From Propionibacteriaceae bacterium (GTDB taxonomy: Bacteria; Actinomycetota; Actinomycetes; Propionibacteriales; Propionibacteriaceae): DNA of 32,000 nucleotides. Every line of letters starts with the position of its first letter. The first letter of the stretch is position 1. Below, in pieces: positions 1 to 21,026 of this stretch. The notes below the pieces were generated by a model. That model was not told where the DNA came from, did not search any database, and saw only the letters and a program-made list of their open reading frames with translations. Where the stretch lies: NCBI GenBank assembly GCA_031256725.1, contig JAIRQE010000007.1:1-32000 (forward strand), read 5' to 3'. A program made the translations under genes and the position numbers.

Positions 1-935
1 CTGTCGGACATATTGATGATGCAGCAGACACAATCCGGGGTGTCACGAATACGTTGGATACTATCAAGAGTGTTGATAAAGCCAGTGACACAGCCACTGC
101 GATTAGGAATGCGGATAAGGCGGGTGAGGCGGCTACCGTGTCGAAAGTTGATACGGGTACGTCACCGTCGCAAGTCAATAGTGTGAAGCCGTCGTCGTGT
201 TTGAGGTCGTTTACGGCGGATACTCCTGTGTTGATGGGGGATGGTACCCGGAAACCGATTGGGGATATCCAGACTGGTGATAGTGTTACCGCGTTTGATC
301 CTGGTACGGGTGTTCAATCTGTTGAAACTGTGACCGCAACCTGGCCTCATGGGGACACTGTTGTCACTCTCACTTTGGGTGATGGTACGACTATTGACAC
401 CACAGCCTCACATCCGTGGTGGGTGGAAAACAAGCGGGCGTATATTCGTACAGACCATTTAGAACCAGGTGACCTGCTGCTTACAGCGGATGGGTCGACA
501 CTCACCGTTGAGAGGATGTCACGGCCTCAGGGTGAGGAATTGGTATATAACCTCACCGTCACCGGACCACATACGTACTATGTGGGTGAAGAAAGCCTGC
601 TGGTACATAATACTGCGGGTGATTGTTCGATAGTGCCAGACAATGCCGTTGTGGTTATTGGAGGTACTAAGGATGTACCTGCACCTGGAATAGTGTTTAG
701 TGGGTCTTTTGGAGCAACCTTAGATGAAGCTGCTGCGGCTGTGCCTCATGGACAACTTCGAGCTACTACAGCAGGAGAGATTAGGCAAGGTGGTGGGACT
801 GTAGTGTCCGTACCTGAACCTACGCGTAGCGGCCAAATCAATGAGTACCATGTTGATATTTGCTTAGGGGTAGGGGCGTGCCAGATTAGTGATCTTCAGG
901 CTAATCCAATACCAAAATTAGATAGGATTAGTTAA
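1..935 (+). CDS. C-terminal portion of a large polymorphic toxin (5' end outside the window): helical linker, Hint/intein-like pretoxin domain, ~107-aa unassigned C-terminal tip
   Basis: The frame is open from nt 3, with no stop before the TTG listed at 54, so the ORF enters from the left edge. Hint blocks are present: CLRSFTADTPVLMGDG (Cys codon 198-200), TASHPWW, YNLTVTGPHTYYV and LLVHN followed by T (Asn codon 609-611). Stop TAA at 933-935. Confidence 0.75.
   Translation, partial: VGHIDDAADTIRGVTNTLDTIKSVDKASDTATAIRNADKAGEAATVSKVDTGTSPSQVNSVKPSSCLRSFTADTPVLMGDGTRKPIGDIQTGDSVTAFDPGTGVQSVETVTATWPHGDTVVTLTLGDGTTIDTTASHPWWVENKRAYIRTDHLEPGDLLLTADGSTLTVERMSRPQGEELVYNLTVTGPHTYYVGEESLLVHNTAGDCSIVPDNAVVVIGGTKDVPAPGIVFSGSFGATLDEAAAAVPHGQLRATTAGEIRQGGGTVVSVPEPTRSGQINEYHVDICLGVGACQISDLQANPIPKLDRIS
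198..611 (+). other. Hint (hedgehog/intein-like, PT-HINT type) domain inside the toxin ORF
   Basis: N-terminal nucleophile Cys, a TxxH-type block (TASH), and a C-terminal HN dipeptide followed by Thr. The domain is ~138 aa, the size of mini-intein-like bacterial Hint domains. Confidence 0.75.
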
Positions 936-1252
936 TGAAATGGATTCCCATAACCTACTATGAGTTCTATGATTGTCCACGCTTATTCATCGCGGAGTGG
1001 AATGGTGCACTGTTTATATTTGACTGTCCATTCAGTGATAGTTTTGATGAATATCCTGAATACTATTCAGTCTATCGTTTATCTTTAGATGTATATTCAG
1101 TAAGTAGTCTTTCGGAAGTGTTGTCGGTAATTGTTTCTGAGGCCCCATGTTGTGAAGTGGCGGTGTGTGAGGTTGTGTTTGACGAATCCAGGCGAAGGGC
1201 CATTGGAAGAGATGTACTTCGGAGGGTATCCATCAAATGTAGTAGTATCTAA
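935..1252 (+). CDS. putative cognate immunity protein (105 aa, acidic, aromatic-rich)
   Basis: Its ATG shares one nucleotide with the toxin stop (TAATG at 933-937). It is small, sits immediately 3' of a toxin tip, and is markedly AT-rich: 42% and 33% G+C in the two 60-nt lines I counted, against 57% in a clpB line. I recognise no homology. Confidence 0.5.
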   Translation: MKWIPITYYEFYDCPRLFIAEWNGALFIFDCPFSDSFDEYPEYYSVYRLSLDVYSVSSLSEVLSVIVSEAPCCEVAVCEVVFDESRRRAIGRDVLRRVSIKCSSI

Positions 1253-1474
1253 TTTGTAGTTGTCTCCGAATTCCTGTCACGAGTCACGATCTAATGATCG
1301 GACATGCTTCTAATCAAGCCATCGTGGTGGACAGGGTCGGTGTCGGCCCCTCGTCACACTGGACATGCCGGACACAACACATATTCACGGTGAAGAGATT
1401 GGAGAGTCACACCGCAACGAGACGACCCACACCAATCCTGCCAGCCAGCCCCAGGCAAGTGAAAGGAAATCACA

Positions 1475-1735
1475 ATGGTCATACTAAGTGATGAAGAAGA
1501 AAAGAGACTATGGCGGGAGCGTTGGAATCGATCTGAGGTTCTGGTTGAGGAAGCGAGACAATATTTTGATGCGGACTCTTTGGAACAGGTTGATAGCTAT
1601 CTTTATCACGCTGGAGATACTGTAGACGCCCTATACGAATTAGTTCGCGAAATTGCATTCGAAGGTGGCGGTGGGGTCTATCGGCTAAACGGTGTAAGTG
1701 GCTCTATTTGCCCTGTTGGGCGGAAGGAGTCGTGA
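1475..1735 (+). CDS. small acidic hypothetical protein (86 aa), possibly an orphan immunity-type gene
   Basis: ATG is preceded by gaaaggaaa (AAGGA about 8 nt upstream). The predicted protein is helical and acidic, and it lies downstream of the toxin/immunity pair. No motif recognised. Confidence 0.35.
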   Translation: MVILSDEEEKRLWRERWNRSEVLVEEARQYFDADSLEQVDSYLYHAGDTVDALYELVREIAFEGGGGVYRLNGVSGSICPVGRKES

Positions 1736-1872
1736 TGACTGCAACACTTGTGGTTATGGAAACCTACTTAAAGTCCACAACTTTGGTACGGTCCTCGGGT
1801 TTCGAGCGAGTTTTATGAACTTACGTACGCGTGATGCGATAGCGGGTACGGTAGGGTTGGGTTTGGGTACTT

Positions 1873-2910
1873 ATGGCATTGGAGCCGGTACGAAAGGCAG
1901 GGATTGTGAACCCAGTACAGGATCTCGCTGAAGGTGTTTTTCAGGGTAATCGTCGACAGATTGCACGCGCAATCACCCTGGTGGAATCCATGCGAATGGA
2001 GGATCGGGTGAAGGCTCGAGAACTGCTCGGAATCCTGAGGGAACGCCCCACATCGGCAGTACGCATAGGTGTCACAGGGGTGCCAGGTGCTGGAAAATCC
2101 ACTTTCATTGACGCCATTGGGGTCAAGCTCATCGAGTTGGGGAAGAAGGTCGCTGTCCTTGCTGTAGACCCATCCTCATCCAAGACTGGCGGATCTATCT
2201 TGGGTGACCGTACCCGTATGGGGGCTCTCGCTGTTTCCGATGATGCCTTCATTCGCCCCTCGCCCTCGGGAAATCATCTCGGCGGTGTCGCCAGAGCCAC
2301 CCGCGAATCCATGCTCGTCGTTGAAGCAGCAGGTTATGATGTCGTCCTCGTCGAAACTGTAGGTGTCGGCCAATCCGAGGTCGCTGTTGCTGGGATGGTC
2401 GATACTTTCCTCCTCGTCACGCTTGCCCGAGCAGGTGATCAACTCCAGGGGATCAAGAAGGGGATCCTGGAGATGGCCGACATCATCACTGTCAATAAAG
2501 CCGATGGTGACAATGAAGCAGCCGCCAGGGTTGCCGCCCGTGAACTCACCACAGCCATGAAGCTCATTACTGCTGACCCTAAAGCCCGTCGCCCACCCGT
2601 TCTCACGTCCTCCTCCTACACTGGCATGGGTCTCATGGATCTGTGGGCTGCCATCCTCGACCATCGCGAGTACCTTCAAAGTACAGGCGGACTCAACGCA
2701 AGAAGGGCGCGCCAACAACGCGACTGGATGTGGTCCCTGGTCGATGATGAACTCCTGGAATCTGTACGTCAAACCCAGGCTGTCAAGGTATTACGCCATG
2801 AATTAGAGCAGCAAGTCATGGACGGTACCACCTCTGCCATGGAAGCCGCCCAGGAGGTACTCACGACCTTCGCCGCCAATCTCCCACCTACCTGGATGGA
2901 TGAGGATTAG
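1873..2910 (+). CDS. meaB: methylmalonyl-CoA mutase-associated GTPase MeaB/ArgK
   Basis: P-loop GVTGVPGAGKST, plus VLAVDPSSSKTGGSILGDRTRM, ETVGVGQSE and the NKAD G4 motif. It is colinear with mycobacterial MeaB as I remember it. The start is uncertain: ATG 1873 or in-frame GTG 1906. Confidence 0.9.
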   Translation: MALEPVRKAGIVNPVQDLAEGVFQGNRRQIARAITLVESMRMEDRVKARELLGILRERPTSAVRIGVTGVPGAGKSTFIDAIGVKLIELGKKVAVLAVDPSSSKTGGSILGDRTRMGALAVSDDAFIRPSPSGNHLGGVARATRESMLVVEAAGYDVVLVETVGVGQSEVAVAGMVDTFLLVTLARAGDQLQGIKKGILEMADIITVNKADGDNEAAARVAARELTTAMKLITADPKARRPPVLTSSSYTGMGLMDLWAAILDHREYLQSTGGLNARRARQQRDWMWSLVDDELLESVRQTQAVKVLRHELEQQVMDGTTSAMEAAQEVLTTFAANLPPTWMDED

Positions 2911-2934
2911 CCCCCTGATTTTCCCCTGAGGGGA

Positions 2935-2963
2935 GTGGTGTCTGTGGACACTCTTGTTCACTC
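2935..2963. repeat. copy 1 of a 29-nt exact repeat (gtggtgtctgtggacactcttgttcactc)
   Basis: Base-for-base identical to 29065-29093 by direct comparison. The flanks diverge on both sides. Confidence 0.9.
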
Positions 2964-2971
2964 GTACTAAA

Positions 2972-2992
2972 CTTGAGTCTAGTACGCTCAAC
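2972..2992. promoter_or_regulatory. HAIR-like (HspR-associated inverted repeat) operator upstream of clpB
   Basis: The sequence CTTGAGT-ctagtac-GCTCAAC compares with the consensus CTTGAGT-N7-ACTCAAG. The left half is perfect and the right half matches 5 of 7. It lies 25 nt upstream of the clpB ATG and is nested in a perfect 7-bp inverted repeat, CGTACTA (2963-2969) / TAGTACG (2980-2986). Confidence 0.5.
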
Positions 2993-3016
2993 TTTTGGAC
3001 ACATTCAAGGAGTGAC

Positions 3017-5596
3017 ATGGATACCGAAAAGCTCACCGCGATGAGCCGGGATGCCTATAGTGCGGCAACGAGGATTGCTTTGACGAATGGGAACCCGGCT
3101 GTTGAACCTGCGCACCTACTCTCGGCGCTGCTCTTGATTCCAGACAATACGGTCACCCCACTCCTGGCTAGCCTCGGCGGGGATCCGGAAGAGATCGGGA
3201 ACCAGGCCAAGCAGATGATCGCCAAACTTCCCTCAGCATCTGGGTCCTCTGTGGCACAACCAACCCTGTCAGGTGGTCTAGCTAGAGCGATGGCCGAGGC
3301 TGAGACCCAGGCCCAGAAGATGGCTGATCAGTACGTCGCGACTGAGCATCTTCTCATTGGTCTAGCAGCAACCCAATCACCAGTACAACAAATCCTCGCC
3401 GAGCGCGGTATCACCGCCGAGAAGCTGATTGAATCATTCAACGAGAAACGCGGTGGCAAGAGGGTCACCTCGGCTGCTTCAGAGGGTGGGGAATCGGCCC
3501 TCGACAAGTACTCAGTCGATCTCACTGAACAAGCCCGAGACGGCAAACTTGACCCAGTTATTGGTCGTGACGCCGAGATCCGTCGTATCGTACAGGTCCT
3601 TGCGCGTCGTACCAAAAACAATCCGGTGATCATTGGTGAACCTGGGGTGGGGAAGACCGCTGTCGTGGATGGGTTAGCTCAAAGGATCGTTGCGGGGGAC
3701 GTACCTGACTCTCTCAAAGGCCGACGCCTGGTTGCGCTAGACCTGGCATCCATGGTGGCGGGAGCCAAATTCCGCGGAGAATTCGAGGAGAGGTTCAAGG
3801 CTGTACTCAATGAGATTCGCGAGGGCGAAGGCCAGGTCATCACCTTCATTGATGAGCTTCACACCCTCGTCGGAACGGGCGCATCCGGGGATTCAGCCAT
3901 GGATGCCGGAAATATGATCAAGCCCATGTTGGCCCGCGGCGAACTGCGAATGATTGGCGCCACAACTCTTGATGAATACCGTGAACACATCGAAAAAGAC
4001 CCTGCGCTTGAGCGCCGTTTTCAACAGGTATACGTCGGGGAGCCCTCCGTTGAGGACACTATCGCGATCCTGCGTGGGCTAAGGGAGAGGTACGAAGCCC
4101 ATCACAAGGTACGTATCACCGACTCTGCTCTCGTTGCCGCAGCAACCCTCTCTCATAGGTACATCACCTCAAGACAACTGCCTGACAAGGCCATTGACCT
4201 CGTTGATGAGGCTGCCTCACGGCTACGCATGGAGATCGATTCCTCCCCAGAGGACATCGACGAATTGCGTCGACAGGTGGACAGAATGACCATGCAGCAG
4301 TTCGCCTTGGAGAAGGAGGATGACCCGAGTTCCATCGAAAGGCTTCACCGACTCCAGTCAGATCTGGCCGATCATAAGGAGAAGCTGCGTGCTCTCGAAA
4401 CTAAATGGGAGGCAGAAAAGTCGGGCCTCAACGAGGTGGGTGACGTCAAGGAAACCATCGATCGTGTACGCATTGAAGCCGACAGGGCTCAACGTGAAGG
4501 CGACCTCACCAGGGCATCCGAGTTGCTGTACTCCGAACTGCCGAAACTTGAGGCACGATTGGCTGCTGCTGCCGAAGCCAAGAGCAGCTACACCATGGTT
4601 TCTGAGGAGGTCGGATCCCATGACATCGCTGAGGTGGTCTCTGCGTGGACAGGGATCCCTGTGGGCAAGATGCTTCAAGGTGAATCCGAGAAACTCCTCG
4701 ATATGGAGGCCGTGATCGGCAAACGCCTCATAGGTCAAGATTCCGCTGTGGCTACGATTGCTGATGCGGTACGAAGGGCCCGAGCTGGTATTTCTGACCC
4801 GAATCGGCCCACCGGCTCCTTTCTGTTTCTGGGTCCGACTGGCGTGGGGAAGACAGAGTTGGCTAAGTCTTTGGCAGAGTTCCTCTTTGATGATGAGCAC
4901 GCCATGATCCGCATCGATATGAGTGAGTACTCAGAGAAACACTCGGTGTCGCGTTTGGTGGGTGCCCCTCCTGGGTATGTCGGATATGACCAGGGTGGTC
5001 AACTTACTGAGGCAGTACGACGTCGCCCCTATTCCGTGGTGCTCCTAGATGAGGTTGAGAAGGCGAATCCTGAGGTCTTCAACATCCTCTTGCAGGTCCT
5101 TGATGATGGTCGCCTGACCGATGGACAGGGTCGTACTGTTGACTTCCGCAACACCATTCTGATTATGACCAGCAATATTGGTTCACAGTTCCTTACCGAG
5201 TTGACCCTTGAACCTGAGGAGCAACGCGAATCTGTGATGACTGCGGTACGAATGATTTTCAAACCGGAGTTTCTCAACAGGCTTGATGACATCGTTATGT
5301 TTGAGCCGCTGACGAGGGAGGATCTCGCGAAGATCGTTGTCATTAACCTGACTCGTCTCAATAAGCGCCTTGCTGATCGCAGGATCACAGTTGAGGTGAC
5401 TGGTGCTGCTCGCGAATGGTTGGGGACAACCGGGTTCGATCCGATCTATGGCGCTAGACCGCTGCGTCGTCTCATCCAGACAGTGATCGAAGATCCCTTG
5501 GCGCGGATGGTACTTTCGGGTGAAGTGACTGATTCCCAGACCGTACTCTTCGATGTGAATGAATCCGGTGACGGGTTGGACATCCTTGAAGATTAG
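3017..5596 (+). CDS. clpB: ATP-dependent chaperone/disaggregase ClpB
   Basis: Two AAA+ modules (GEPGVGKT and GPTGVGKT Walker A), a long coiled-coil middle domain, and a Clp N-domain. I chose ATG 3017 because AAGGAG lies at 3007-3012. The track start at 2954 adds 21 non-conserved residues. Confidence 0.97.
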
Positions 5597-5796: not shown

Positions 5797-7658
<1,862 letters not shown>

Positions 7659-7774
7659 AGGTATGCTGCTATCCGCGTTTGGATCATGCACTGCTTCACG
7701 ATAGGATCAGAAGTCGGTCGGCGCAAGGTCGGTCGCATTAACGTGTGTGGGTTCTCCCTCGAGGAAGGTCAACA

Positions 7775-7876
7775 GTGGGTTCGGTCATCAAAAAGCGCCG
7801 TAAGCGCATGGCGAAGAAGAAGCACCGCAAACTGCTGAAGAAGACGCGTATCCAGCGTCGTCGAGCAGGTCGCTAA
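7775..7876 (+). CDS. 30S ribosomal protein bS22 (33 aa, highly basic; mycobacterial Rv0500B-type)
   Basis: It is not in the ORF track because it is too short. GTG at 7775 follows gaggaagg (7761-7768). Translation is [33 protein letters not shown], with stop TAA at 7874-7876. Its position just downstream of proC matches mycobacterial synteny as I recall it. Confidence 0.85.
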
Positions 7877-7914
7877 TTACAGCGGCAGAACGCGAGAGCG
7901 CCATAGGGGGTCCT

Positions 7915-8550
7915 ATGTCCATCGTTCATGTTATGCGCCACGGGCAGGTAGATAACCCCCAAGGTGTCCTCTACGAACGTCTCCCCGATTTCCATCTCAG
8001 CGAACTCGGACGCCAAATGGCGGTTCAGTCGTCCGCTTTCTTTGCTGAGCTTCCGATCACGCATCTGCGTTGCTCGCCCCTGGAACGTACGAGGGAAACC
8101 ATGAAACCCGTGGCAGCACTCTTCCCCAAACTTGAGGTTGTCATCGACCCCCAGGTCATTGAGGCTGGCAACAAGTTCGTTGGCCAGATCATGGGATCCA
8201 CTGGCCAGGCAGCCAAAAATCCCAAGAACTGGCCGATGCTTCTCAACCCCTTCCGCCCAAGCTGGGGTGAGGCGTACGCTGCGATAGCCGACCGCATGAC
8301 GACAGCCATCCTGGAGGCTGCGGAAGTCGTCGGCGAGAATGGTCAAGCGGTCATTGTCTCCCATCAACTCCCTATTTGGGTTGCCCGCCAACGCGCCGAA
8401 GGCAAGAAACTGTGGCATGATCCCCGCAAGCGGCAATGCACTCTGGCGTCGATCACGAGCTTCTACATCACCGATGGTCAGATCACCAAAGTTGAGTATG
8501 CTGAACCCTCAGCCGATCTGCTTCCTCAGGGTCCCAAATTCGGATTCTAG
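7915..8550 (+). CDS. histidine phosphatase family protein (phosphoglycerate mutase-like)
   Basis: N-terminal VMRHGQ catalytic RHG motif, SPLERTRET, and a distal SHQ histidine. Confidence 0.85.
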   Translation: MSIVHVMRHGQVDNPQGVLYERLPDFHLSELGRQMAVQSSAFFAELPITHLRCSPLERTRETMKPVAALFPKLEVVIDPQVIEAGNKFVGQIMGSTGQAAKNPKNWPMLLNPFRPSWGEAYAAIADRMTTAILEAAEVVGENGQAVIVSHQLPIWVARQRAEGKKLWHDPRKRQCTLASITSFYITDGQITKVEYAEPSADLLPQGPKFGF

Positions 8551-17539: not shown

Positions 17540-19457
17540 AGCAACCATCGCCATTGGGCGAGTTCGAGCGATGCCCTTTGGGCGCTCCCGTACAGAGGCT
17601 GCTGCTCGACAGGTACGCATTATCGAAGCCGAGGGGCCCGATGAGGTACGCGCCTATGCCCTTGAATCCCTCGTTGAAGCGCTCACGTGGGCTGGCGAGG
17701 CTGAGAAGGCATTGGTACCTTTCGTCAAACTGTTGCGGTGGTGGGATCTCCATCCCGAACACTTCGATTCAGGCGACCAAAATATCTTGTTCTGGGAGTT
17801 TGGTTGGATCGTAAACGACCTCAGTCGTACCCCCACTGTTTCTGTAGAGAAAGTGGATCGTGTCCTTGAGGACATGGAGAAACGCTTCTCCCTCGCCAAT
17901 CGGGGAATGGAAAGGGTCTGGTGTTCACGCTTGGAATGGGCACTGCTGCGCCGCTCAGAGGATTTGGAGAAGACCTTCACAACCTGGCTCACGATGCCCT
18001 TGGATGATGAGGATTCCTGTGTGGCATGCCATAAGGAGTACCACGCGGGGTACCTCTTGGAAATCGGTGATATTCACGGGGCGGTCGCCATCTTGGAGGC
18101 TGGGATCGTCGCTGAACTGAGTTGTTCGCGAGAGCCAGCATCCATGCTGTCGGTACTTGCGTGGTGTTACCTCGAACTGGAGCGCCTCGAAGATGCCGAA
18201 AAGGTACTTCCCACAGCGCTAGGAGAGTTGAAGTCTGCGACCTCGATGAGTGTACTCATCGCCTATGCGCGACTCTTTGAGGTCTTCGCTCGCGGACACG
18301 ATAAGACGCGGGCCCTAGAGTTAATCGCCAAGATCGCGGAGTCGATCGAAACCGCATCAGCCTATGTACGACTGGAGACTCTACGTCACCTCATCGCCGG
18401 GATGAGATGCCTAAGCGAGCAGGGGTATGCGCAGGAGACAATCACTTTTGGGTCCGACGAAGACACTATCGCTCATCTGGTTGACTCCTTCGACACCCAA
18501 GCCACTGAGCTATCCGAAGCCTTCGATCATCGCCACGGTAATACTGTTCAAGCAGACCGCTTGGCTCGATCACGCAAAGTTCACTCCACATCCAGGCCTC
18601 TTGTGTTCGTACAACCAGAGAGACCCAGTTTCGTGGCAGGTACAACCTCAGCCAGTCATGATGTGACCTGGAACCGCGACCGTGCTTATCTGGATCAAGC
18701 CGAGGATGCCTACCAGGATGGGGACCACACCCAGGCCGCCGACCTCTACCGTATTGCTGCCGAACAGGCCCAAAGTGAGGGCCTCCTTTTGGAGGCAGGA
18801 TGGTGCTGGGCAGAGGCGGCGCGCAATGCCCAAGAGATCTCGCAATTCGATGTGGCAGCCCATGATTACATGGAAGCCCAAACGAGACTCAAAGCCGCTG
18901 GGGCAACCCTGGAAGAGATCACCCCCATGTTTATTGCCTGGGCACCCGTGGTACAAGAAAACCACTACCGCAAATATGTGGATATGGCCCTCTACGACTA
19001 CCCAACCCCAGCGCGCGCCCATGGTACAGACAAGATCGAGGAGATACTTCCGATCGTCTTCCAGTCATCGATGGTGAATACTCCGTTGATTAAGAAGTAC
19101 GTCCTAGCGCGTGCGGAACTCAGGGATTCGGTGGCCCGGGTTCTTGCAACCTGGGGAAGCCTTGAGGATAAGATTGAAGCCATCGACATGGTGGAGGAAT
19201 CAGCCACACGCTTCACCCTTCTGGGGCGTTCAGATGCCGCAGCCCACAGTTGGTGGCTGGCCGCCCGATTGGCAGCGGAAGTCAACCCGGCCCTAGTCAC
19301 CCCGAATTACAGCAAAGCACTCCAAGAATTCAAAGCAGTAGGCCAACGCGGGCGAGTCTTTGGGGCTCAGGTTGCGGGCGACTATGGCGAGTATTTGAGG
19401 ACCCTCGGACGCTACGATGAAGCCTCCAAAGTCGAAGAATCCTGGAAGGACGAGTGA
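17520..19457 (+). CDS. 645-aa alpha-helical repeat (TPR-like) protein of unknown function
   Basis: ATG 17520 follows GGAGGGAGG (17506-17514) and overlaps the HSP90-paralog 3' end by 20 nt. The sequence is helix-rich, with TPR-like stretches such as AEDAYQDGDHTQAADLYRIAAEQAQ. Confidence 0.7.
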   Translation: MTRSVPEATIAIGRVRAMPFGRSRTEAAARQVRIIEAEGPDEVRAYALESLVEALTWAGEAEKALVPFVKLLRWWDLHPEHFDSGDQNILFWEFGWIVNDLSRTPTVSVEKVDRVLEDMEKRFSLANRGMERVWCSRLEWALLRRSEDLEKTFTTWLTMPLDDEDSCVACHKEYHAGYLLEIGDIHGAVAILEAGIVAELSCSREPASMLSVLAWCYLELERLEDAEKVLPTALGELKSATSMSVLIAYARLFEVFARGHDKTRALELIAKIAESIETASAYVRLETLRHLIAGMRCLSEQGYAQETITFGSDEDTIAHLVDSFDTQATELSEAFDHRHGNTVQADRLARSRKVHSTSRPLVFVQPERPSFVAGTTSASHDVTWNRDRAYLDQAEDAYQDGDHTQAADLYRIAAEQAQSEGLLLEAGWCWAEAARNAQEISQFDVAAHDYMEAQTRLKAAGATLEEITPMFIAWAPVVQENHYRKYVDMALYDYPTPARAHGTDKIEEILPIVFQSSMVNTPLIKKYVLARAELRDSVARVLATWGSLEDKIEAIDMVEESATRFTLLGRSDAAAHSWWLAARLAAEVNPALVTPNYSKALQEFKAVGQRGRVFGAQVAGDYGEYLRTLGRYDEASKVEESWKDE

Positions 19458-19918
19458 TGGGATATTTCACCAGACCTGAGGGTCTCACCTCTGATTTAGC
19501 CCCACTGACAACGGGCCGGGTCACTGCCTGCTTGGATTCCCACCAATGGCATTACGAGGTTGCTGACGAGGGGGATGTCGGCGGCTGGTGGGACGGGTAC
19601 TGGTTCGTCTTCTCATTTCGTGGAAAATCCAAGGAGATCTTCTTCGCCCATGCGATCTGGAACCGAGGGGTACCGGCATCTGAGTTCAACCAGGCTGTCC
19701 TCTATGCCAACGAGTGGAATTCTGAACACCTGTGGCCCATGATGAGTGTACGTGAGAGGGATGACACCATCGTTGTACTCACCGACTTCTCAGTCGATTA
19801 TGGTTTCGGTCTCACTGATGAGCAGCTTGATCTCCACATCCGTTGTGCCATCGACACCATGGTTTCTGCCCTCACCTGGATGGATTCCAAGTACCCTGAC
19901 TACGTCGACAACAAGTAG
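19454..19918 (+). CDS. YbjN-domain-like protein (secretion-chaperone-like fold family)
   Basis: About 150 aa and acidic, with W/F-rich blocks WWDGYWFVFSF and ANEWNSEHLWP that I associate with actinobacterial YbjN-family proteins. GTG 19454 or ATG 19457 overlaps the upstream stop. Confidence 0.65.
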   Translation: MMGYFTRPEGLTSDLAPLTTGRVTACLDSHQWHYEVADEGDVGGWWDGYWFVFSFRGKSKEIFFAHAIWNRGVPASEFNQAVLYANEWNSEHLWPMMSVRERDDTIVVLTDFSVDYGFGLTDEQLDLHIRCAIDTMVSALTWMDSKYPDYVDNK

Positions 19919-20135
19919 AAAATGGGTGTACGAAGTCGCCCATTTCCCTGGATTGAAGCTAAGCCCAATCTACAAGGTGATGTTAAATTACAGGCGAAAT
20001 GAAGGTTTCGTGTTGTATTAGTACACAGTATGTTATTATGAAAAAGAATATTCAGAAATTGAAGGAACCTATTCAGTTTCTATTAAATCAGTGATTCAGT
20101 TCTCGTGGATCCCCATGAGGTGTTTTGTTTGATGA

Positions 20136-21026
20136 ATGCAGGCTTATAGTATGGTGTTGACTTTGTCGAATCGTATCGTGATTTTTTGTATGATTATGAC
20201 GACGGCGTTTTCGCTTTGTGCTTGCTCTTTTTCGTCGTCACCTGTGAATGAGTCTTCTGATATACCTGCGGTTCCTTCTGCGGTGCTTGATTGGTCTAGG
20301 TCAACGATCGTCTTGCCATTGGATAGATATGGCATGAGTATTGCTGAAGAGCAGGTGGTTCTTACTGCTCAGGTTATTGTTCTTTGGGGGTGTCTTGTGC
20401 CAGGTGTTGACCTGTCGGAGGAAGCGCTTCGACAAGCAAGAAAAATGCTTACGGTCGATGATTCGGTCAACAATTGGTTGTACGGGGCATGGAATGCCAG
20501 CTATATTGCGAGTCATGGTGTCCGTGGATCGGAGATCTCTGCGTGGCCATCTTTCCCGAATGTTGATGACGACACATATTACTCCTGTATTAGTGAACGT
20601 GCATTTTTAGACATGGCTGTAGTGAATGGAACTAGGTATCCAGGTGAGGCAAATACAGTGACATTGGCCCTCATTCGCTACTCGGTCGAGGCTCACGATA
20701 ATACGCTTGCTGACCCGCGCTTCATCGAGTTGGTGCAGACTCGTTCACAATGCGTTCGCGACCAAGGTTACACGGTTTACGAGGATGAACTTGGGGGTAT
20801 TGATCTGGGGTCTTCGTCGACAGAAGAGCAGTTTCTCGCGGCTATGCTTGCCGAAGCAACGTGTAGTGATCAGATGAGTTTTACCCAGCGGGCGGCTGAC
20901 ATCAATGTTGAGTATGAGATGCAGATTATCCGTGAACACGAAGCTGAGCTAGTGACTATCAAACATATCGCGGACGAGCGTGTCGCTAGAGCTACTCAGA
21001 TTTTGGAAGAGGTTGGGGTTCTGTAG
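20136..21026 (+). CDS. putative secreted lipoprotein, unknown function
   Basis: N-terminal hydrophobic segment ending in LCAC, followed by a Ser-rich linker (lipobox-like). G+C is lower than neighbours, at 40% and 48% in the two lines I counted. The start is uncertain. Confidence 0.55.
   Translation: MQAYSMVLTLSNRIVIFCMIMTTAFSLCACSFSSSPVNESSDIPAVPSAVLDWSRSTIVLPLDRYGMSIAEEQVVLTAQVIVLWGCLVPGVDLSEEALRQARKMLTVDDSVNNWLYGAWNASYIASHGVRGSEISAWPSFPNVDDDTYYSCISERAFLDMAVVNGTRYPGEANTVTLALIRYSVEAHDNTLADPRFIELVQTRSQCVRDQGYTVYEDELGGIDLGSSSTEEQFLAAMLAEATCSDQMSFTQRAADINVEYEMQIIREHEAELVTIKHIADERVARATQILEEVGVL

Follow-up and report, generated by a model that had tools for sequence, protein, structure and literature searches.

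Among the Rhs toxins that carry a PT-HINT domain are the WapA-type proteins of Gram-positive bacteria. This class of Rhs/YD polymorphic toxins with a PT-HINT pre-toxin domain was described by Zhang et al. (2012, Biol Direct 7:18; PMC3482391). A HINT domain just ahead of the toxin is taken as a releasing autopeptidase in such proteins, and has been reported with export by general secretion (type II secretion system, T2SS), the type V and type VII secretion systems (T5SS, T7SS) and TcdB/TcaC, not with type VI secretion (T6SS) (PMC3482391). Short C-terminal toxin domains (tips) outside known families have been described as well, among them PT1-PT9, which were discovered computationally together with their immunity proteins (PIM) and of which PT1 and PT7 have solved structures (bioRxiv 10.1101/2021.10.19.465003), and Tox1-Tox24, the tips of W10XG proteins (PMC13483458). 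Here, a computational analysis of a stretch of 32,000 nucleotides (nt) from a Propionibacteriaceae bacterium (GenBank assembly GCA_031256725.1, contig JAIRQE010000007.1, positions 1 to 32,000; hereafter the window) indicates, with a probability of about 0.87, that nt 1-1252 form the 3' terminal cassette of a polymorphic toxin system. The architecture is textbook; the tip and immunity families are uncurated and without structural precedent.

The locus shares with the Rhs/PT-HINT toxins the order of a pre-toxin Hint, a short variable C-terminal toxin and an adjoining small immunity gene. The same tip family is, furthermore, found on Rhs scaffolds in five loci, one of which (L019) combines RHS, PT-HINT and tip in a single protein, and the cassette in the window is poor in G+C. 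Unlike those toxins, the window holds the C-terminal part of the toxin only, without an Rhs/YD part or a secretion signal, and the tip and immunity families match no Tox-, Ntox- or Imm- model of Pfam. With PT1-PT9 and Tox1-Tox24 the tip has in common that it is a short C-terminal domain without a prior family, known by its position, by scaffold swapping and by a downstream immunity gene; several of those tips also have predicted or solved folds that lack a close precedent. PT1 and PT7, which should be in the PDB sets searched, gave no match to the tip by sequence or fold search, and the comparison, made by description only for the other PT and Tox families, identifies the tip with none of them.

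The toxin gene enters the window from the left as an open reading frame (ORF) in frame 3 of the plus strand, which has no stop between nt 3 and the TAA at 933-935 (310 codons) and is open at the window's edge. The elements of the cassette are the following (aa, amino acids):

nt 3-206, plus strand: pre-toxin linker, aa 1-68, rich in Ala, Asp, Thr and Lys, without a Pfam match and with no stop back to nt 3.
nt 207-611, plus strand: PT-HINT autoproteolytic domain, S69 to N203, matched by PF07591 (E=2.5e-16) and by intein_Cterm.
nt 612-935, plus strand: toxin tip, T204 to S310, 107 aa (nt 612-932), followed by the TAA stop at 933-935.
nt 924-927, plus strand: Shine-Dalgarno-like AGGA within the end of the toxin gene, 7 nt 5' of the immunity ATG, named for its resemblance to the consensus only.
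nt 935-1252, plus strand: predicted cognate immunity gene, 105 codons, with an ATG that overlaps the toxin stop (TAATG).

The immunity ATG (935-937) and the toxin stop thus have one A in common. The cassette is also a compositional anomaly. In 200-nt steps, G+C is 0.435 at 801-1000, 0.340 at 901-1100 and 0.405 at 1001-1200. Specifically, G+C and G+C at third codon positions (GC3) are 0.480 and 0.29 in the tip and 0.406 and 0.37 in the small ORF, against 0.566 and 0.57 in the neighbouring gene for MeaB and 0.549 and 0.59 in that for ClpB, and only 0.7% of the 318-nt windows in nt 1873-32000 are as poor in G+C as the small ORF. A preliminary description, made from the letters alone, had noted a left-open ORF with a linker, a complete Hint and a tail of about 107 aa, a 105-codon ORF that shares a base with the toxin stop, and a drop in G+C across the cassette; all four elements (open ORF, Hint, small ORF and composition) are confirmed as real at the positions listed above. 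Neither the tip nor the immunity gene has a second copy in the window, and scans of nt 1-3000 for promoters, terminators and repeats gave no excess over shuffled expectation.

The identity of the tail as a toxin tip is carried by its relatives. A word-indexed protein search with the single sequence, the sensitivity of which is limited, returned five relatives only (96-132 aa). A full HMMER scan queried with the alignment of these five then gave hundreds, namely 317 cluster representatives at E<=1e-3, 243 of them at E<=1e-10 (clustered at 50% identity), and the window tip scores 145 bits (E=2e-37 for a database of 5.8e9 sequences) against a profile from which it had been left out. Among 153 representatives examined, carriers range from 91 to 4263 aa in length, and in 97% the tip domain ends at most 15 residues from the C-terminus. 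When residues are numbered on nt 603-932 and conservation is counted over 146 members, G20, N80 and H83 are invariant, and S33, G34, G37, A43, P48, H49, G50, R53, T55, T56, R61, G64, G65, P71, E72, N101, P102, P104, K105 and R108 are near-invariant. The top score of the tip profile search belongs to P0007, a highly repetitive protein of 3353 aa whose 38 matches, all partial, fall on profile positions 18-70; this looks like an artefact of composition or repeats instead of true kinship, and the protein was left out of the family statistics.

When metagenome contigs and GTDB genomes were scanned with the alignment of the tips, 24 loci were obtained, in Actinomycetes, Jatrophihabitantaceae, other Actinomycetota, Nitrospira, Myxococcales, Gemmataceae and other Planctomycetota, one of them a short remnant in Fodinicola, and the family spreads over Actinomycetota, Planctomycetota, Nitrospirota and Myxococcota. 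Five of the locus carriers, between 1572 and 3270 aa in length, are Rhs proteins in which DUF6531 and RHS repeats occur; that of L018 additionally has TcdB_toxin_midN and FG-GAP, and that of L019 ends with the same architecture as the window protein. The 70 longer representatives include 25 with RHS_repeat, 7 with RHS core, 9 with PT-HINT and 1 with SpvB/TcdB. PT-HINT occurs in 2 and PT-TG in 1 of 75 short carriers, in none of which any Pfam family covers the tip, and some tip copies stand alone. As is characteristic of polymorphic toxins, a variable toxin domain is therefore found at the extreme C-terminus of differing N-terminal scaffolds.

The part of the window protein that would serve its trafficking lies to the left of the window. 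A Pfam scan found neither YD/RHS repeats nor an RHS core of the DPxGL type in the 68 residues that the window holds ahead of the Hint. Such repeats or the core are present in the relatives L005, L008, L015, L018, L019, P0123 and P0058; several relatives with a Hint are fragments in which hydrophobic regions rich in Gly and Ala, instead of RHS, precede it, and no Pfam domain was found in the N-terminal parts of mid-size carriers. Judged by these relatives, an Rhs/YD stalk would be the most likely trafficking part, with somewhat better than even odds.

The second line of evidence comes from the small gene downstream, which co-varies with the toxin domain in the manner known from polymorphic toxins. 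Its product is an acidic protein of 105 aa (isoelectric point, pI, 4.5) without a signal peptide or a transmembrane segment. A single-sequence search with this ORF matched only itself; the ORFs directly 3' of related tips are visibly homologous to it. A profile made from 12 of these downstream ORFs detects a same-strand homologue immediately 3' of the tip in 20 of 23 full-tip loci, which had been chosen by the tip alone. The exceptions, L004, L008 and L019, are exactly the loci whose tips bear a C-terminal 'RFGxPxYPY' extension, and they share another downstream protein, likewise acidic (pI about 4.5) and 167-180 aa in length, whose family has no Pfam domain. The genes of this alternative putative immunity protein, paired only with 'RFGxPxYPY..W' tips, lie at:

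L004, 441-956.
L008, 4716-5219.
L019, 10352-10894.

The 'RFGxPxYPY..W' extension is found in 15 database tips. With 20 of 20 loci on one side and 3 of 3 on the other, tip subtype and downstream family hence partition perfectly. The relation also holds in reverse: on four long contigs picked by an immunity homologue alone, the tip lies directly upstream of 4 of the 5 immunity genes; on one contig the pair is duplicated in tandem, and one immunity gene is an orphan. An alignment-based database search extends the immunity family to 243 clusters (90% identity), all of about 100-125 aa, annotated 'hypothetical' and without a Pfam domain, and a leave-one-out profile recovers the window copy with 89 bits (E=6e-20 for a database of 5.8e9 sequences). 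Members of the family are acidic, with a median pI of 4.7, and their hydrophobic segments never exceed 8 residues, which points to a cytoplasmic protein and, by extension, to a toxin that would act in the cytoplasm.

Some members of the two families are incomplete. Degraded tips lie beside intact immunity genes in L022 (4723-5039, frameshift) and L014 (1127-1423, in-frame stop), the Fodinicola locus L025 keeps a tip remnant of only 33 aa (8324-8419), and in L028 an orphan immunity gene (8001-8315) follows a GH16 gene, with no tip.

These data bear directly on what the preliminary description had proposed, namely a PT-HINT domain, a variable C-terminal toxin and an overlapping immunity gene on a low-G+C cassette. 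The tail behaves as a polymorphic-toxin tip would, C-terminal in nearly all representatives and carried on Rhs, PT-HINT, SpvB/TcdB or PT-TG proteins or alone; the overlapping ORF co-varies with it as an immunity gene would (20 of 23 loci, the three exceptions forming one subtype, and 4 of 5 in the reciprocal test). That the tail might belong to a housekeeping family had been named as a finding that would overturn the proposal. The tip matches nothing in Pfam, NCBIfam, PADLOC or the PDB sequences (the latter by single-sequence and profile searches), and behaves as a toxin tip. Across the window sequences and 75 + 70 + 19 family members, moreover, no family of Pfam, NCBIfam or PADLOC names the tip or the immunity protein. 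The earlier label 'unassigned' accordingly stands with respect to curated libraries and needs amending in that both proteins belong to sizeable conserved families.

Several observations weigh against a functional toxin cassette in the window. Within it, the toxin portion shows no secretion signal, Rhs repeat or T7SS domain, the ORF being cut by the edge. At position 19, the window tip has Ile in place of the Arg found in 127 of 146 relatives or the Lys found in 13; at position 95, its Ile stands where Phe is found in 128 relatives. The immunity copy, too, departs from its family at about 7 near-invariant positions, a conserved Trp among them, and the pair could be drifting or shifted in specificity. 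Such departures are what would be expected of a silent remnant, no longer expressed within a functional exported toxin; the cassette might be a former 3' end that was displaced, or an orphan module. The degraded tips in L022, L014 and L025 as well as orphan immunity genes such as that of L028 show that decay occurs in related loci. However, both ORFs of the window are intact, the frame is open for 203 codons upstream of the tip, through a complete Hint and the linker to the window's edge, and the stop/start overlap and the AGGA are preserved. Every other near-invariant residue of the tip is kept, and position 19 lacks Arg in other members as well (Ile in P0154, Leu in P0069). A decayed or orphan cassette is, on this balance, unlikely.

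A second alternative is that the pair acts inside its producer, in addiction or phage defense, as a module resembling toxin-antitoxin systems instead of an exported weapon. It draws on the stand-alone pairs of the family, in which a tip of roughly 126 aa starting with 'MFPxxCG' is followed by an immunity gene. These pairs were found on Planctomycetota-type contigs:

L027, 6725-8306: two tandem pairs after ispF and cysS.
L029 and L030, 7614-8309: one pair between cysS and ruvC.
L021, 9935-10687: stand-alone pair.
L024, 9974-10658: stand-alone pair; the gene past it starts with what we take, by eye, to be a RuvC-type N-terminus.

On such contigs the pair occupies a fixed site flanked by cysS and ruvC, in one case duplicated in tandem, and looks like a fixed chromosomal two-gene module, not an Rhs tip. 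The window tip, in contrast, sits behind a Hint releasing domain in an ORF that continues upstream, which is typical of exported polymorphic toxins; the long carriers are mostly Rhs proteins, with RHS_repeat in 25 of 70 and RHS core in 7 of 70, and PADLOC returned no match. An intracellular role of the window pair is therefore very improbable. An anti-phage defense gene was considered as a candidate in its own right and rejected, given the lack of a PADLOC match and the Hint-fused architecture of an exported toxin. In L029 and L030, a deposited ORF of 172-179 aa (7414-7932, minus strand) runs antisense over the stand-alone tip gene (7614-7964, plus strand), and because of this gene call the tip is absent from the protein sets of those assemblies.

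The Hint domain itself is of the pre-toxin type. Pfam PT-HINT (PF07591), whose cut-off is 27.7 bits, matches aa 84-203 at 60.6 bits (E=2.5e-16) over positions 9-136 of its 137, which places a releasing-peptidase module directly ahead of the toxin domain. Other general Hint and intein models detect block A from aa 66-70, and NCBIfam intein_Cterm matches aa 181-204 with 24.5 bits against a cut-off of 15.6. Block A reads SFTADTPVL, a TxxH-like motif is present as 'TASH', and the domain ends with LVHN, followed by T. The LVHN junction recurs in 13 carriers that combine a Hint with a tip of this family, and in them the tip start 'VPDxxVVVRGG' comes 5-15 residues past it. The residue after LVHN (+1) is T, C, S, D or E in these carriers, and D or E in 5 of the 13, with which C-terminal cleavage is compatible and splicing is not. 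A genuine intein in a housekeeping protein, whose 107-aa tail would be a C-extein and no toxin, is accordingly rejected as having a negligible chance: the C-terminal splicing motif (HN, then Thr), the Ser at Hint position 1 and weak NCBIfam matches to intein-containing radical SAM and DnaB models speak for it, but these matches reach 25-33 bits against cut-offs of 700-780 and cover the Hint region only, PT-HINT is the best-fitting model, the supposed C-extein belongs to the toxin-tip family, is homologous to Rhs protein C-termini and is followed by the same small gene in 20 of 23 loci, and D or E at +1 rules out splicing.

The available data are compatible with a model in which nt 1-1252 encode the end of an exported polymorphic toxin. 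A large exported protein would end in the linker, the PT-HINT domain and the 107-aa tip, with its N-terminal trafficking part to the left of the window. After export, the Hint would free the tip at LVHN|T via cyclisation of the terminal Asn, as the family suggests, and the tip would then enter a competitor cell and hit a cytoplasmic target. In the producer, the acidic and presumably cytoplasmic 105-aa protein encoded at 935-1252, translationally coupled to the toxin, would bind and block the tip. Tip and immunity gene would be transferred jointly, in a cassette poor in G+C. The steps of this model that we infer are secretion, Hint cleavage, toxicity and neutralisation.

What the tip does in the target cell can be addressed by its predicted structure. 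AlphaFold2 gives confident models of the tip (predicted local distance difference test, pLDDT, 92.6; predicted template modelling score, pTM, 0.84) and of the immunity protein (pLDDT 90.2, pTM 0.84). Foldseek against the PDB returned no match at E<=1e-3 for either model, and a BFVD search with the tip model found nothing. The combination of hmmscan with AlphaFold and Foldseek, which the preliminary description had suggested, hence yields no library family and no significant PDB fold match for either protein.

The top PDB fold match of the tip is 1S21 (HopF1/AvrPphF ORF2), a weak one with E=0.44, probability 0.41 and a template modelling score of 0.37, aligned over 70 columns at 4.6 A. HopF1/AvrPphF has a fold like that of ADP-ribosyltransferases (ARTs), and the paralogous HopF2 is active as a mono-ART (PMC3384090). 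In the tip, Arg/Lys19 lies at the end of strand 1, S33 within an F-S33-G-S in strand 2, and E72 within a P-E72 at the start of a short strand, with S33 and E72 39 residues apart, an order that loosely recalls the R-S-E of ARTs. An ART-type or otherwise NAD+-using enzyme is the best guess for the tip, and a tentative one that stands well short of even odds. Besides the weakness of the lead to 1S21, it has to face that none of 75 members matched an ART family of Pfam, even with the threshold relaxed to E<=10, and that the solved Rhs ART toxins in the PDB are not among the Foldseek matches of the tip. The tip also has neither the R-S-E nor the H-Y-E motif proper: its single conserved Glu forms no ExE or QxE, and the window copy has Ile in place of the candidate Arg. 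Finally, the tip is about 100 aa long and has 14 residues from Arg to Ser, whereas known ART domains have 150 aa or more and a spacing of about 40 or more.

A metal-independent RNase is about equally probable; E72, H83, R53, R61 and K105 would suit such an enzyme just as well. The tip family has a pI near neutral (median 6.1), which gives no push towards nucleic-acid binding. The rest of the probability falls to an activity without a current structural precedent, or to something else. The farthest-reaching version, namely a toxin fold without a solved relative and an activity new to polymorphic toxins, accompanied by two unprecedented immunity folds, spread over at least four phyla and domesticated as a stand-alone module between cysS and ruvC, appears doubtful.

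The results add a well-delimited and phylogenetically broad toxin-immunity pair to the catalogue of interbacterial weapons. The tip family comprises 317 or more clusters (50% identity) and that of the immunity protein 243 or more (90%); each has a confident model without a solved counterpart, and neither is covered by a curated family model. The conservation pattern offers E72, N80 and H83, together with R19, S33, H49, R53 and R61, as candidate catalytic residues, and the pairing of two tip subtypes with two unrelated immunity families constitutes a natural experiment on specificity. The pair also provides a handle on antagonism in the poorly studied Propionibacteriaceae and Planctomycetota. 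As uncharacterised tips are now found by the dozen, 24 new families in a single study (PMC13483458), the surprise for the specialist is moderate.

The cassette borders on core genes, which follow downstream together with one further small ORF:

nt 1475-1735, plus strand: ORF of 86 codons between the immunity gene and meaB, G+C 0.475, GC3 0.40.
nt 1873-2910: meaB.
nt 2954-5596: clpB.
nt 5833-6855: asd.

By exact sequence, the MeaB, ClpB and Asd proteins of the window have the accessions MDR0488264.1 to MDR0488266.1, which belong to a contig of 60,686 bp in the metagenome-assembled genome (MAG) of a Propionibacteriaceae bacterium (Actinomycetota). The ORF at 1475-1735 carries the Joint Genome Institute (JGI) label 'DNA-binding ferritin-like protein (Dps family)'; it has no match in Pfam, NCBIfam or PADLOC and a counterpart in none of the related loci, and may belong to the cassette as an additional gene, for instance an orphan immunity gene, or have nothing to do with it.

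The cassette borders are also visible in the Logan assembly of run SRR14710887. Here, the cassette lies alone on a contig of 979 bp (L001) that is identical to window positions 321-1299, and the contig with the flanking core genes (L026) begins at about nt 1677, about 196 nt before meaB. The breaks at nt 321 (inside the Hint), at 1299 (just past the immunity gene) and at about 1677 would fit strain-level variation at the cassette borders, and are not proof of it. Elsewhere in the window, the second-strongest dip in G+C lies at about 19,850-20,300 (318-nt minimum 0.374) and reaches from the end of an ORF at 19454-19918 into the start of an ORF at 20136-21026 that resembles a lipoprotein gene.

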